Part shown: positions 19,172-26,800 of the stretch, in pieces
How the letters are laid out: each line of letters opens with the position of its first letter
Position numbering within the stretch: the stretch's first letter is position 1
NCBI GenBank assembly: GCA_016188385.1
Contig: JACPHV010000002.1
Span: 24,116-88,115, forward strand
Direction: 5' to 3'
Length of the DNA: 64,000 nucleotides
From: Candidatus Uhrbacteria bacterium
Lineage (GTDB): Bacteria; Patescibacteriota; Patescibacteriia; JACQRZ01
Made by a program: the position numbers and the translations under genes
Notes under the pieces: model-generated
What the model was told of the DNA's origin: nothing
The model's input: only the letters and a program-made list of their open reading frames with translations
The model's database searches: none

Positions 19172-19256
19172 ACACTGGCTATGCGGTTCGGGCTTTTCCA
19201 AAGCCCTCTCCCATATTGCTCCCTCCGGTCGCAACATCGCATAGCCAGGAACGTTG
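19172..19256 (+). repeat. Structured repeat family B, copy 1. About 85 nt with an outer 11-bp stem, an inner hairpin and a conserved single-stranded core tctcccatattgctccct.
   Basis: Other copies at 24168-24252 and 26711-26800. The outer stem ctggctatgcg/cgcatagccag becomes cagcgtatgcg/cgcatacgctg in copy 3, which is compensatory. Confidence 0.7.
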
Positions 19257-19265
19257 TACGAAATG

Positions 19266-19325
19266 CATGTTTTCCTTTTGGGCTAACGCCCTGGCTCAAA
19301 AAAAGAATTCAATTTTGTTTTTTTA
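19266..19325 (+). repeat. Repeat family A, copy 3, in direct orientation.
   Basis: catgttttccttttgggctaacgccctggctcaaaaaaagaattcaattttgttttt. Confidence 0.7.
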
Positions 19326-19372
19326 TTAATTTGACAGGGGTAATAAGGAATAATCCTTTATTTTTTTAATGC

Positions 19373-20512
19373 ATGAATACAAAAATAGATACAATCATTG
19401 TTGGCGGTGGGATATCTGGTCTAAGTGCGGCATATCACTTGAAAAAGCATGGTGTAGATTTCAAATTGATTTCGGAAGATATTGGCGGTAGAATTCATGA
19501 ATCAAAAAATGGCAATATACAATACGGCGCATACTACATCATGGATATTTATACGCACACCAAAGAATTTGCCAAAATCGGACGCAAAATTAAACCGTCC
19601 GAATTAATTTTTCACAAGCGTGGCAAAGGCTACTCAATTATCCAAAAATCATTTGTCAGATATATTCCACAGTCGATTCGGTTTGCCATAATTTTGCGTA
19701 AATTCAAAAAACAATATAGCAAATTTAAAAAGGATTGTTGCAATACTTCACAAGCGGAAGTTATTAGAAATAATCCGTACTTATCAAGGCTGTACGAAAC
19801 AAACGCTGCGAAATTTATTAAAGAAAATAAAATCAACGATGTTGTGTGTCAATATATGGAGGAAATTTTACATGGCACAACTTTTACATCGGTTGATAAA
19901 CTCAACGCTTTTACATTTCTTCAATTCTCTTTGCCGTTAATCACTCCGATTCATGAGTTTGTGCTAGATAAAAAGAAAATCATAAATGATTTTAAAAATG
20001 ATATTATTTTTAATGTTGTAGACATTATAAAAAAAGAAGAAGATTATTACGTTCTAAAAACTCAAAGCAAAACATACGAAGCGTCAAATGTTGTCGTAGC
20101 AACACCACCGCACATTTCAAAAAAACTACTTCACTTGAATGATATTAAGGGTGCTGTTGACGCACACATGTTTCATATAGTCGGGCAAGTGCAGGAAAAA
20201 TGGTGCAAGGGTTATTGTAACTTATTTTCTGACGAAAACGATATGCTAGCGATTGCATTTATGCCAGACTACTCGTGCCTGTTTTACTCGAAAAACCCTA
20301 ACCCAGACTTTAGTAAATATTTTTACGATTTTAAAATTTTGGAATCACAATATTGGAATCCAGCATTCAATCTGGAAGGAAATGTTTTGTGGGACAGCAA
20401 AATAGATGATAATCTATATTTAATTGGAGATCATAATGTTTGCGGGATTGAAGATTCTTTTATTACTGGTATTTACGCAGCTAACCAGATTATTGCAAAG
20501 AAAAACCAATAA
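19373..20512 (+). CDS. FAD-dependent oxidoreductase of the flavin amine-oxidase / protoporphyrinogen-oxidase-like family.
   Basis: N-terminal dinucleotide-binding IIVGGGISGLSAAYHL…E…GGR. C-terminal …LIGDHNVCGIEDSFITGIYAANQI. Confidence 0.7.
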   Translation: MNTKIDTIIVGGGISGLSAAYHLKKHGVDFKLISEDIGGRIHESKNGNIQYGAYYIMDIYTHTKEFAKIGRKIKPSELIFHKRGKGYSIIQKSFVRYIPQSIRFAIILRKFKKQYSKFKKDCCNTSQAEVIRNNPYLSRLYETNAAKFIKENKINDVVCQYMEEILHGTTFTSVDKLNAFTFLQFSLPLITPIHEFVLDKKKIINDFKNDIIFNVVDIIKKEEDYYVLKTQSKTYEASNVVVATPPHISKKLLHLNDIKGAVDAHMFHIVGQVQEKWCKGYCNLFSDENDMLAIAFMPDYSCLFYSKNPNPDFSKYFYDFKILESQYWNPAFNLEGNVLWDSKIDDNLYLIGDHNVCGIEDSFITGIYAANQIIAKKNQ

Positions 20513-20581
20513 GTAACTTGAGCTTTCACCCTTGACCATGAATATGGTAAAATAATAACAGGTTTCAATTATATAAAATTA

Positions 20582-24472: not shown

Positions 24473-24661
24473 ATGAAGAAACTAACACCCAAAAATCTTT
24501 TACAAAAAAGATCCTTGCGACTTAAAACGATTTATGACGAATATGTCGAGAGTCTTACGGAACTAAGAAAAAGACATCTTGATGAGTTTACAAGTTTCGC
24601 TCGGAAATTAGAGCAACAGAAAATTGATACGATCCGCAATTCACTTAAATCAAAAGTATGA
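24473..24661 (+). CDS. Small 62-aa basic/helical protein whose stop overlaps the start of the next gene (ATGA).
   Basis: ORF with a 4-nt overlap, suggesting translational coupling with the HExxH protein. Confidence 0.35.
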   Translation: MKKLTPKNLLQKRSLRLKTIYDEYVESLTELRKRHLDEFTSFARKLEQQKIDTIRNSLKSKV

Positions 24662-26472
24662 CCGATACTGAAATTAAACCAACACCAGAGTCACCGGATG
24701 GAGCAGTAGAAAAGCCAACGATACCAGAAAAACCAGAAGTACAAATCGAGACACCCGAACAACTTGATACACTCCGGGCCGAGGCAAAGCAAGGTATTGC
24801 GGATTTAGCGCGTACAGATACGGAGGCAACACTGGGTCGGATTGAGCGAGTTACGTCATCGATAGGTAAAGGCAGTGAAGAAGGCAAAACCATGGCTGTG
24901 CGTCAAGCAAGTGAAATCAAAGCAGTAGAGCAAACTACACTCATAAAGATTGAGGCCTCAAAAATTGGACAATCACTTTCCGCAATCCCAACCGGAGAAG
25001 ATTTTGAGCGCGTAGGAACTGGCGCGCCAGTTTTTGATGGTTCTGCCGAGGAGCAAGCCGCCTCGCAAAATTTATTGATTCGTCTGGAAACCGGACAAGT
25101 CGGCGGAAAACCAGCTACGATCGAGACCGAAGCAGTATCTACAGAGGTTGAGATTAATTTTAATCCGGGAGCGCATGCAGAACAACTTCGTGAAAAAGTA
25201 AAAGGGCTCCTCGGTCGTCCCGAAATTGATAATTTCTTTTCTCAATTGCACCAAGACGATCTAAAAGATTTGGTTGGCGTACTCTCGCGTGAAAGTATGA
25301 ATCCAAAACTTGGTCGTCTTGCTGACCTTTTAAGGTCATCAGTTAAGAGTAAGGATCAATTTGCACAAAATGCCGAAAAACACACAAAAGAACAAATACG
25401 GCAATTATTTGTACAATTCAAAACAGATTTCGACAAAGTATTGGATCAAGTATTTAGCAGAGCAGAGATTCTTGGAATGGCAGAACTCGACATAGATGCG
25501 GCAATGAAAAGGAGCAATGGATTGATTTTGTCACAACGAAGAATATTAGGGCCGGGGCCAATACAAGATTTTGTTGATTCGCTCGCCTATCGCGCACTTG
25601 CTGAGGTTCGAAAGGAAATTGAGGCACAGAAGAAAGCGCAACAATCAGCAGAAATACTAGAGGCTGTTGAAGCGGTGGAAAAAAGAGAAGAACCACAAGA
25701 ATGGCTCGATCAAAAAAGAGAAGCCGCATATGCAGAGTTTGGTAAAATTTTGTCAGAACTTGAAGAATCGGGAGGTGTGGAGGGAGTACAAAAATGGTAT
25801 GCGGATTTTTTCAATCCCGCCCTCACTGAAGCTGGACTTGAACCATTGAAACCAGAAGATGTTCAAAGTTTACGCTACTTAGACGTTATATCTGAATCAT
25901 CGTCTCGTATTGCCGGAAAAGAAATTAGAAGGCCGGTTTTAATTTTTACAAACATTGGGGAATATCAGCGTTTTTCATCACGTCTTCAGGGCGAACACGG
26001 CATGTCATCGCGTGGAATGTATCTGCCACGTGATATCTTTGCAGAAGGCGATTTACTTCGAGAAACAGGACTTCTTATTGCTACAGGAAATAAAGAATTT
26101 ATTGACCATGAAGTAAGACACTCTATTGACCCTAATCTTGAAGCTCGGAAAGGTTATGATGGTATTCTTGACGAAGCTTTCGCGTATTATCAACAGGATA
26201 TTGTTGAAGGGCGATCAGAGGCATACAGACATTTAGCAAAACCGGAAGATGGCCCATGGAGAAGATTTGCAGGTTCAATCGGAGGAGAGATTTACGGGGA
26301 AACATATTCAAAAGGCGCAGAGAAAAAACTATCTAGCGACGAACTGGCAAAATTATCTCAAGATGTCGTTGCCGCAATCCGATCTATTTCTGAAAAAAGT
26401 GGGCACGTGGAAACTCAACGCATTCTCGCACAAACAAAAAGTATTGAGGAATTACTTAGGTTGGCTAAATAG
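24658..26472 (+). CDS. Hypothetical 604-aa protein: an Glu/Lys-rich, predicted helical N-terminal region (~450 aa) plus a C-terminal HExxH (IDHEVRH) domain.
   Basis: HEVRH motif. YLPRD…LLIATGNKEFIDHEVRH parallels YLPDG…SIATILHEVGH of ORF 21798-22733. Confidence 0.5.
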   Translation: MTDTEIKPTPESPDGAVEKPTIPEKPEVQIETPEQLDTLRAEAKQGIADLARTDTEATLGRIERVTSSIGKGSEEGKTMAVRQASEIKAVEQTTLIKIEASKIGQSLSAIPTGEDFERVGTGAPVFDGSAEEQAASQNLLIRLETGQVGGKPATIETEAVSTEVEINFNPGAHAEQLREKVKGLLGRPEIDNFFSQLHQDDLKDLVGVLSRESMNPKLGRLADLLRSSVKSKDQFAQNAEKHTKEQIRQLFVQFKTDFDKVLDQVFSRAEILGMAELDIDAAMKRSNGLILSQRRILGPGPIQDFVDSLAYRALAEVRKEIEAQKKAQQSAEILEAVEAVEKREEPQEWLDQKREAAYAEFGKILSELEESGGVEGVQKWYADFFNPALTEAGLEPLKPEDVQSLRYLDVISESSSRIAGKEIRRPVLIFTNIGEYQRFSSRLQGEHGMSSRGMYLPRDIFAEGDLLRETGLLIATGNKEFIDHEVRHSIDPNLEARKGYDGILDEAFAYYQQDIVEGRSEAYRHLAKPEDGPWRRFAGSIGGEIYGETYSKGAEKKLSSDELAKLSQDVVAAIRSISEKSGHVETQRILAQTKSIEELLRLAK

Positions 26473-26522
26473 ATCATTCGAACATTGCTAAAACAAATGT
26501 GCCTAAATACATAAAGTCAGGG

Positions 26523-26573
26523 TTGGCGGGGCGCAATTCACCCCCTCTAATTCCCACTCTTGCGCCCCGCCAA
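26523..26573 (+). repeat. Hairpin family D, copy 5. Perfect 13-bp stem ttggcggggcgca/tgcgccccgccaa, loop attcaccccctctaattcccactct.
   Basis: The loop is ~90% identical to copy 1, while the stem sequence differs but remains fully paired. Confidence 0.7.
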
Positions 26574-26710
26574 CAAGGAATCAATTCGCCCCTTAAAATA
26601 GTGAAAGCGATCGCGGCAATCGGGAATAGTAAAAATGTACTTCGTCGGTCGCTTCGCTCCCTCCGACCACGCTACGCTCTCGCCTTCGCTTCGCTACGGC
26701 TCGGGTCGGC

Positions 26711-26800
26711 TAACACAGCGTATGCGGTTCTGTACTCGGTTCGCCCCTCTCCCATATTTTTGCTCCCGTTGGTCGCAAAAACATCGCATACGCTGGAACG
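26711..26800 (+). repeat. Structured repeat family B, copy 3.
   Basis: taacacagcgtatgcggttc…tctcccatatttttgctcccgttggtcgcaaaaacatcgcatacgctggaacg. The outer stem covaries with copy 1. Confidence 0.65.

Follow-up and report, generated by a model that had tools for sequence, protein, structure and literature searches.

A 64-kb stretch of a Candidatus Uhrbacteria chromosome, hereafter the window, carries three copies (B1, B2 and B3) of a structured repeat that we call family B. From comparison with related loci, we consider it likely that these copies are the attC-like cassette recombination sites of an integron-like array in the chromosome, served by a non-canonical integrase. The array lies in an island (~17.0–27.5 kb) with a GC content of 0.34–0.44, compared with 0.45–0.51 in its flanks; all sizeable open reading frames (ORFs) of the island are on the + strand, and it starts 86 nt from a divergently oriented tyrosine recombinase gene. 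This layout, in which an array of one orientation begins at an insertion site close to a divergent recombinase gene, is that of integrons. Because the domain specific to integron integrases (IntI) is absent from the recombinase, we file the system as one that works like an integron and not as a member of the class.

A first-pass annotation of the same DNA had described family B as a structured repeat of about 90 nt in three same-strand copies, and had proposed it as a non-coding RNA or as the core of a miniature inverted-repeat transposable element (MITE). The three copies, recovered as three-copy families in our repeat search, are indeed all on the + strand. A covariance model built from the sequences of relatives and run on the window matched only B1, B2 and B3, and three motif scans found no further copy in the 64 kb. 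The repeat itself is real, but its borders had been drawn too tightly: it extends ~10 nt further on each side, to ~100 nt, and thereby includes (ACATC)NNNN-AAC at its start and GTT-NNNN-GAAAT at its end. The stems quoted here were read directly from the window sequence. The outer stem, P1, is CTGGCTATGCG/CGCATAGCCAG in B1 and CAGCGTATGCG/CGCATACGCTG in B3; the compensatory swaps reported between these two copies are genuine and number three base pairs rather than two. P1 of B2 (CTGACTATGCG) contains one A.C mismatch. The inner hairpin is as first described in B1 (GGGCTTT-TCC-AAAGCCC) and B2 (GTCTCT-TTCG-AGAGAC), and a clear inner hairpin is absent from B3 on single-strand folding. The core between the stems, CCCATATTGCTCCC...GCAACATCGCATA, is conserved, as had been stated. 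All copies lie downstream of a GC-rich hairpin (the D hairpin), at measured distances of 68–136 nt rather than 60–120 nt.

As a folded single strand, B1 begins with an R'' box (ATATAAC), continues through P1, the P2 hairpin and P3 (ATATTGC/GCAACAT), and closes with a GAAC bulge and the R' box G19253↓TTGTAC, where the arrow marks the putative crossover. The predicted energy of this fold is -20.8 kcal/mol on the + strand and -22.7 kcal/mol on the - strand. B2 has AGCTAAC as its R'' box, a TTCG loop in P2, and ATT (A24249↓TT) in place of GTT as its R' box. Compared with shuffled controls, the copies have folding z-scores of -2.0 to -4.6, and the - strand folds better than the + strand in all three.

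That structure is kept while sequence changes had been taken by the first-pass annotation as a sign of a functional structure rather than neutral duplication, and a larger set of copies bears this out. A pattern in which only the 5′ half and the core were fixed was run against one genome for each GTDB species and gave at least 119 stretches; counts of loci given below rest on the matches listed. Ten stem positions are left unconstrained by the pattern and so provide an unbiased test of the stem. Among the 137 matches listed from other genomes, 77 show full complementarity at these positions and 108 can pair at no fewer than 8 of the 10; ~14 of the 137 look like chance matches, and 36 distinct stem sequence types are represented. 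For covariation we used an alignment (A2) of 52 sequences that had been pre-filtered for P1 pairing at 9 or more of 11 positions, so that its P1 figures (96.5% paired, with double changes at 7 of the 11 pairs) are less fair a measure than the ten free positions. One P3 pair in A2 is T:A 45 times and A:T 7 times, with no mismatches. The covariation score is 0.437: shuffled alignments gave 0.125, none of 500 reached the observed value, and slid registers gave at most 0.115. RNAalifold independently predicts P1, the base of P2, and P3. Some sites appear chimeric, with P1 halves from different stem types that are complementary at only 5–7 of 10 positions (L002 376–291(-), L009 4984–5091, L014 4601–4688 and L027 5321–5425, L-numbers denoting loci in other genomes); these may be scars of homologous-recombination deletions within the conserved core.

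The borders of the repeat resemble those of attC sites. Both A:T pairs of the AAC/GTT boxes hold in 51 of the 52 aligned sequences and the C:G pair in 45, giving an inverse core and a core with a crossover boundary at the GTT flank. The classic core sequences GCCTAAC and GTTAGGC are frequent, and many of the NNNN tetranucleotides deviate from a strict RYYY/RRRY. P1 behaves as attC stems do, in that its sequence is free, as the 36 stem types attest, save for an invariant TAT. Unlike in a typical attC, this TAT and the CCCATAT...ACATC junction are near-invariant across phyla. An asymmetric 1-by-4-nt loop (A2 columns 13 and 111–114) lies on the L'-R' arm. One position is A.C in all 52 sequences and becomes a T.G wobble if read on the - strand. 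Since mismatches in P1 also lean towards A.C on the top strand (A.C/C.A 15 times, G.T/T.G 9 times), they lend weak support to the idea that the bottom strand is the one that folds.

The matches listed fall overwhelmingly in Patescibacteria, the candidate phyla radiation (CPR), and include Uhr-, Magasanik-, Buchanan-, Kuenen-, Kerfeld-, Lipton-, Campbell- and Roizmanbacteria as well as Peregrini-/Peribacteria, Gracilibacteria and Saccharibacteria. The covariance model detects 113 copies in 40 loci, and in all 38 loci with matches the copies are on one strand. The 72 units between neighboring copies have a median length of 972 bp, and in 67 of them the longest ORF is co-oriented with the element; the median such ORF occupies 78% of the DNA between sites, and the usual content is one co-oriented ORF per unit. 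In the complete Peribacteria genome CP060226, six copies spaced 600–950 nt apart fill one 8-kb block (L113). A recombinase homologue was found in the same block as the sites in 18 loci; its gene and the array run divergently in 15 of these, an arrangement expected in ~1/4 by chance. Thus, as in integrons, the array has one orientation, points away from the recombinase gene, and consists of units that each end in a site. Good B sites also occur on contigs of metagenome-assembled genomes (MAGs) labeled Woesearchaeota, Altarchaeum, Gammaproteobacteria or Bacteroidota (among them L009, L042, L013, L046, L066 and L116; labels as given), and are either mis-binned CPR contigs or a spread beyond CPR. 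A copy labeled Thermoplasmata (L026) is weak, scoring 47 bits with 3 of 10 stem positions complementary.

If the units are cassettes, how are they delimited? We compared the NNNN of each inverse core with the four bases that follow the GTT of the previous site, with those that follow its own GTT, and with random pairs. Complementarity to the previous flank was perfect in 34 of 70 cases (49%; mean 2.91 of 4 positions), compared with 11 of 100 for the site's own flank (mean 2.11) and 6% for random pairs (mean 1.89), and it often reaches 9–12 nt. Because it is the GTT flank of the preceding site, and not that of its own, with which each inverse core tends to pair, the comparison indicates that the units are separate cassettes, cut at or beside G↓TT like those of integrons. 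The first gene block of the window is an example. The reverse complement of its leader (~16979–17009) agrees with the left arm beside B1 (~19097–19127) at 30 of 31 positions by eye, whereas the adjacent right arm of B1 matches that left arm at 87%. As the leader is the better match, the two ends of this block appear to pair with each other, as would be expected if it had once been a circle that was opened at G↓TT. Close resemblance is also seen between the 70 nt on the right side of the GTT of B1 (19253–19322) and the 70 nt after the GTT at 16948–16950. In the extended palindrome of ~220 nt centered on B1, the left arm is formed by the end of cassette 1 and the right arm by the 5′ leader of unit 2.

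This end-pairing bears on the proposal that family B is the core of a MITE, or a REP-like selfish repeat, mobilized by a transposase and accumulating between genes. The palindromic form, the ~70-nt inverted arms around B1 and the many near-identical copies in unrelated genomes would fit such an element. However, the arms flanking one copy belong to different units (30/31 against 87% for B1; 49% against 11% across loci), whereas the arms of a MITE belong to one element; the copies keep a single orientation in 38 of 38 loci; and we noticed no target-site duplications and found no transposase. We reject the MITE reading on orientation and end-pairing, and of the explanations considered here it seems to us the least probable. 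Nor is family B typically viral, since a scan of viral contigs with the B pattern gave only 2 matches in the IMG/VR collection; a blastn search with the 236-nt B1 palindrome found no match in phage and plasmid collections.

Comparison of relatives suggests where cassettes enter. One related contig (L002) encodes an 81%-identical recombinase, has the same flanking genes, and carries 10 kb of small genes that all point away from the recombinase gene. B-like elements occupy almost every intergenic space of this contig; their stems are quite divergent but self-complementary. The strict pattern matched one of these copies, and reading the intergenic spaces gave seven that are diverged, chimeric or degenerate. 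A metagenome scan with the Uhrbacteria palindrome described below returned only 2 contigs, one of which provided an insertion polymorphism. The recombinase genes of L002 and L128 are 72% identical in nucleotide sequence. A PQ-loop cassette that lies directly at the G↓TT beside the recombinase gene in L128 shares 92.6% identity with the second cassette of L002, and L002 carries exactly one extra cassette (9866–9087, 780 nt, consisting of a hydrolase gene and a B site) between the G of that junction and the shared cassette. A Fic cassette is also common to the two loci (82.5% identity), with different cassettes between. The one-cassette difference at this junction indicates that cassettes are gained at the recombinase-proximal site, and the greater conservation of cassettes than of the adjoining recombinase gene points to their horizontal movement. 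Two further loci share only the ends of a cassette, at 95–97% identity: 267 nt including B (L066 1–267; L103 138–404) and a 207-nt 5′ leader (L066 5047–5252; L103 4121–4327). Their cargo and recombinase genes do not align, which points to a conserved non-coding "chassis" of ~400 nt with exchangeable cargo.

The junction itself resembles an attI site, with its putative crossover 86 nt from the start codon of the recombinase gene. The window, L001, L002 and L128 are homologous through ...AACNAGTT (...AACNAG↓TT) and unrelated beyond it. An N-A-G↓TT-NNNN-GAMAT junction is present ~85–160 nt upstream of the recombinase gene in at least 13 divergent CPR loci. The NNNN of the window junction (ATAT) is complementary to the inverse core of B1 (ATATAAC), and for 9 of 12 loci, as judged partly by reading, pairing is perfect between the first B site and the NNNN that follows the attI-like G↓TT. 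The arrangement is thus that of an integron, with an attI-like site beside the integrase gene and insertion at G↓TT. A promoter scan found no + strand promoter candidate at the attI-like site, and the promoter count was not above chance. Since cassette leaders contain a terminator-like hairpin, cassettes may carry their own expression signals.

Between the recombinase gene and the attI-like site lies a 30-bp palindrome with perfect arms and the 11-8-11 arrangement of a dif site, which is conserved in L001, L002 and L128 and overlaps promoter-like hexamers that face the recombinase gene, at a count not above chance. Candidate roles for this palindrome are those of an operator, an accessory binding site or a dif site. 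We rejected it as the crossover site: the homology of the relatives continues ~24 nt past it, to G↓TT, so the crossover lies outside the palindrome. GC skew shows no inversion near 16.9 kb, so that nothing obvious marks the attI region as a terminus or a dif position. In other CPR lineages, the equivalent place is taken by another palindrome (TTGTATAATATACAA).

Could family B instead act as an RNA? A small RNA, a 3′-untranslated-region or terminator element, or an antisense RNA, with the fold selected in the transcript, would account for the strong covariation, the conserved three-way junction, the invariant A.C that reads as a G.U wobble on the - strand, and the location of the copies just downstream of ORFs. 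It would leave unexplained why the inverse core pairs with the GTT flank of the previous unit, why there is an attI-like junction, and why two loci differ by exactly one cassette at G↓TT. The copies stand at the 3′ end of co-oriented ORF units and are bounded by AAC and GTT, and the first unit begins at a conserved G↓TT beside a tyrosine recombinase gene. No Rfam family matched at the gathering threshold anywhere in the 64 kb, and searches of 19000–19400 in E-value mode gave only chance-level matches (E ≥ 0.5), none on B1. No known Rfam element thus explains family B; a match to a known Rfam or insertion-sequence element was what the first-pass annotation had said would undo its proposal. A scan of the window for tRNAs and tmRNAs found none. 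The non-coding RNA proposal is the poorer fit, and we hold it to be highly improbable; of the "functional RNA or DNA structure" first put forward, it is the DNA half that these data support. An RNA side-function of the sequence is possible.

We presume, from its conserved position next to the array, that the neighboring recombinase is the cassette integrase. Its gene is transcribed away from the array and lies just to the left of the island, followed by fmt. The protein is 100% identical to one from a Candidatus Uhrbacteria MAG and belongs to a family of ~270-aa proteins found throughout Patescibacteria; no second Xer paralog is encoded within the 64 kb. It scores 221.7 bits on NCBIfam NF040815 (XerA / integron integrase; cutoff 220), which it thus passes, 209.7 bits on TIGR02249 (integron integrase), below the cutoff of 265, and ~186 bits on the XerD and XerC models. 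Among solved structures, Pyrococcus abyssi XerA (4a8e) aligns in one stretch at 147.6 bits and Vibrio cholerae IntIA (2a3v) in two stretches at 142.2 bits. The IntIA alignment stops at query residue 178 (IntIA 182) and resumes at query residue 202 (IntIA 250). By these comparisons, the recombinase appears as close to XerA as to IntI.

Several observations weigh against the view that family B sites are attC-like. Within the window, end-pairing holds only for cassette 1 (4/4) and cassette 3, whose 5′ end (TTAGCT) is complementary to its own inverse core (GGCTAAC) at 3 of 4 positions. Unit 2, which is 5 kb long and contains about five genes, shows none (0/4), as expected if internal sites have been lost. 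B3 has GCC (26800–26802) where GTT is expected. The evidence on the folded strand, 15 mismatches of one kind and 9 of the other, is weak. The unpaired bases of B are on the L'-R' arm, and the extrahelical bases of a canonical attC are on the opposite one. In addition, ~44 residues of IntIA (within 182–250) have no counterpart in the recombinase; we take this region, which fits the description in PMC9668308, to be the IntI-specific (I2) insertion. The I2 insertion is held to be necessary for attC recombination (PMC9668308, PMC4792948), and this domain around patch III, which defines integron integrases, was looked for in the recombinase and is absent. Finally, a recombinase is encoded in only ~20 of the 119 8-kb blocks listed, and in a complete Peribacteria genome the sites occupy two locations far apart, in blocks without one.

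These last points also raise the possibility that the system is a canonical integron whose true, I2-bearing IntI is encoded elsewhere, the array being a cluster of attC sites lacking an integron integrase (CALIN) and the Xer-like gene a bystander. The AAC/GTT boxes, the many classic cores and the lack of a recombinase in most blocks with B sites would agree with this, and CALINs are common in bacteria and archaea (PMC9668308). But at least 13 divergent lineages have the attI-type junction immediately next to the Xer-like gene, gene and array run in opposite directions in 15 of 18 loci, and a cassette has been gained exactly at its junction. Moreover, none of the 24 recombinase matches in the loci has an IntI-sized insertion. 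A bystander role for the Xer-like gene therefore strikes us as quite improbable.

A less remote alternative is that the array consists of tandem elements of the type of integrative mobile elements exploiting Xer (IMEX). The recombinase would then be the housekeeping Xer that resolves chromosome dimers in CPR bacteria, selfish units would mimic a dif-like site by forming a hairpin, as CTXphi does, and the host would have no dedicated gene-capture platform. Consistent with a housekeeping role, the ~270-aa recombinase is 60–90% conserved over many CPR lineages and syntenic with fmt, its best structural relative is XerA, and a second Xer paralog is missing from the 64 kb. The dif-like 11-8-11 palindrome adjoins the attI-like site, folded B presents two ~11-bp arms around a mispaired center, and the cassettes combine a conserved ~400-nt non-coding chassis with exchangeable cargo. 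Arguing the other way, most units are single small ORFs without replication or mobility genes, the crossover lies at a G↓TT of its own, ~24 nt past the palindrome, and the GC skew does not invert near 16.9 kb; the divergent recombinase, proximal site and one-orientation array form the geometry of an integron. We regard an IMEX-type array as unlikely. It differs from an integron-like array mainly in who benefits, the chemistry being alike.

For the integron-like array that we favor, the following scheme can be envisioned. A cassette would comprise a leader that begins with TT-NNNN-GAAAT, one or more cargo ORFs, and the B site, which is entered through NNNN-AAC and left through rAAC-G. When single-stranded, B would fold so that (TC)NNNN-AAC pairs with GTT-NNNN(GA) as the R stem, followed by the 1-by-4-nt asymmetric loop, the 11-bp P1, and a three-way junction from which the variable arm P2 and the conserved arm P3 (CCCATAT...ACATC) emerge. 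Two arms of ~11 bp around a mispaired center would reproduce the layout of an Xer/dif site and of the CTXphi hairpin. By analogy, the recombinase would be the catalyst and its substrate single-stranded: it would cut at G↓TT, and exchange of one strand between folded B and attI would insert a cassette, whereas exchange of one strand between two B sites would excise one as a circle. The resulting junction could be resolved by replication, as it is for attC x attI and CTXphi (PMC4792948). The conserved three-way junction may stand in for the contact between extrahelical bases and I2 in true integrons.

More tentative is the idea that such capture operates across CPR, as an integron-type system in which an I2-less Xer/XerA-like recombinase acts on attC-like sites with a three-way junction of their own, whether as an ancestral state or as a second invention; we see this as a real possibility that falls a little short of probable. 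In the full-text literature that we searched, such arrays are described neither from CPR bacteria nor in association with Xer-type recombinases. The paper on archaeal integrons requires the IntI domain. According to Escudero et al., an I2-like domain is not known from any Xer; the same authors pose a "chicken-and-egg" question about attC-type sites and the I2 domain (PMC4792948). If correct, our reading would supply the missing case for how either of these arose without the other. A widespread cassette system without I2 would change the definition of an integron integrase and would provide a model for the origin of integrons from Xer-type recombinases. It would also concern the biology of CPR bacteria, whose genomes are very small and which are held to be host-dependent, as a hot spot for accessory genes would be a major route of adaptation and transfer. 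The genes exchanged include Fic/Doc toxins, RhuM and metabolic enzymes, and the matches in MAGs labeled as archaea or other phyla suggest that exchange may extend further, taking the labels as given. Tools that require the C-terminal signature of IntI would not call these loci complete integrons. Sampling may add to this. The contigs of two other close relatives end ~20–120 nt from the recombinase gene (L001 1–118, L005 1–23), that of L001 just 5 nt past the attI GTT. Since arrays seem to break metagenome assemblies systematically at attI, the variable pool of cassette genes is probably under-sampled.

Table 1. Coordinates of the array, its putative sites and the neighboring recombinase gene in the 64-kb window
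Feature	Coordinates	Strand	Basis	Remark
Xer/IntI-related tyrosine recombinase, 270 aa	16050–16862	-	Pfam Phage_integrase + Phage_int_SAM_4	
30-bp palindrome TGATATGATAC-CATATTAA-GTATCATATCA	16895–16924	.		between recombinase gene and attI
attI-like site GATATCAACGAG↓TTATATGAAAT	16937–16959	+		array start between G16948 and T16949
Cassette 1	16949–19253	+	ORF list, Pfam, hairpin scan	
Cassette 1, 5′ leader	16949–17015	+		
Cassette 1, terminator-like hairpin	17039–17064	+		
Aminotransferase-like gene, two ORFs	17099–17371 and 17356–18246	+	Pfam	
DHDPS-family gene	18230–19027	+	Pfam	followed by D hairpin, left arm and B1
D hairpins	19044–19098; 24050–24099; 26522–26574	+	sequence reading; repeat search	
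Extended palindrome centered on B1, ~220 nt	19101–19322	.	inverted repeats I1 + I4	-62.7 kcal/mol, z = -10.6
B1	19162–19264	+	covariance model, 95.8 bits	putative attC-like site of cassette 1
Unit 2, 5 kb	19254–24249	+	Pfam, sequence reading	
FAD oxidoreductase	19373–20512	+	Pfam	
RhuM, two ORFs	20582–21214 and 21242–21604	+	Pfam	
311-aa ORF	21798–22733	+		
Fic	22898–24046	+	Pfam	
B2	24158–24260	+	covariance model, 83.9 bits	putative attC-like site
Cassette 3	24250–26799	+	ORF list	
Cassette 3, 62-aa ORF	24473–24661	+		no convincing Pfam family
Cassette 3, 604-aa ORF	24658–26472	+		no convincing Pfam family; followed by D hairpin
B3	26703–26811	+	covariance model, 60.0 bits	putative last, degenerate attC-like site

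The array of the window (Table 1) is partly decayed, as seen in the unpaired ends of unit 2, two split genes and a B3 without GTT. Unit 2 is probably a fusion of several cassettes. The aminotransferase-like and RhuM genes are each split into two adjacent ORFs that look like frameshifts or pseudogenes, which is consistent with a decaying array. The cargo of the island includes two Fic/Doc-family proteins and several ORFs without a family. To the 3′ side of B3, a 48-aa ORF (26862–27008) overlaps the ORF of a Doc/Fic-family protein (26974–27555), a layout that resembles a toxin-antitoxin pair. Directly after the island, where GC returns to ~0.5, lies a 2150-aa ORF (27920–34372) without a Pfam match.

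The non-coding parts of the cassettes contain further repeated elements. The D hairpins have long GC-rich stems and a conserved loop, ATTCACCCC, and start a few bases after a stop codon; two partial ones, consisting only of the 5′ half, are found at 21596–21640 and 22725–22765. Located in the non-coding 3′ region of cassettes, they are possibly terminators. As the first cassette of L002 lacks D hairpins, the system does not universally include them. Between the left arm of cassette 3 and B3, there is a 65-nt GC-rich insertion (26645–26710) with three CGCTWCGCT repeats; the CCGCTNCGCT motif also occurs in loops of B sites (those of P2 and P3) and in those of leader hairpins from other genomes. 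Many cassettes have a conserved 5′ leader of the form ...GGGGAAATAAGGTGT-(hairpin GTTTTCTCCGCT..CGCTCCGAAAAC)-GATTTAT, present in the window at 17028–17075 and 24370–24410 and found upstream in L103, L066, L110, L119, L030, L074 and L046, which span distant CPR lineages. This leader looks like an intrinsic terminator and an AT-rich stretch ahead of the cargo gene.

How does the array compare with known systems? With integrons it shares a divergent tyrosine recombinase gene and a proximal attI-like site that ends in G↓TT, an array of one orientation whose cassettes are mostly single ORFs of ~1 kb with toxin-type cargo, and cassette ends that are imperfect palindromes bounded by ...AAC and GTT..., whose structure is kept while their sequence varies and whose inverse core pairs with the first bases of the same cassette. 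Unlike the enzymes of integrons, the recombinase described here has no I2 insertion. The site differs from attC in its continuous 11-bp stem with an invariant TAT, in a conserved three-way junction that replaces the free variable terminal structure, and in unpaired bases on the other arm. The cassettes also carry a conserved 5′ leader of ~200 nt that includes a terminator-like hairpin, and the host range is CPR.

A mechanistic parallel may be found in CTXphi and other IMEX at dif, where XerCD would likewise provide an I2-less Xer-type recombinase, a folded single-strand hairpin with a mispaired center, exchange of one strand, replicative resolution and tandem arrays at the site. IMEX, however, are phages or genomic islands that bring their own replication or morphogenesis genes and insert in dif, whereas the units described here are single cargo genes, their site, beside the recombinase gene, is not the dif-like palindrome, and their array has the order of an integron. 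The pdif modules of Acinetobacter plasmids are small gene modules, including toxin-antitoxin and accessory genes, that are bounded by Xer-type sites in varying contexts, and in this they resemble our cassettes. Their sites are double-stranded 28-bp XerC/XerD sites of alternating orientation, with neither a folded form nor a recombinase-proximal insertion point.

The Vibrio cholerae repeats (VCRs) of sedentary chromosomal integrons, attC sites of more than 100 nt, are likewise long, highly similar sites repeated along a chromosomal array that cause assembly breaks. VCRs are homogeneous within a species, whereas a few types of B site recur almost identically across CPR lineages that differ at the level of class or phylum. 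Finally, archaeal XerA has the solved structure nearest to the recombinase (4a8e, 147.6 bits) and lends its name to the NCBIfam family whose cutoff the protein passes (NF040815). XerA is itself a single-recombinase system; it is known for the resolution of chromosomes at a double-stranded dif site rather than for the capture of cassettes.

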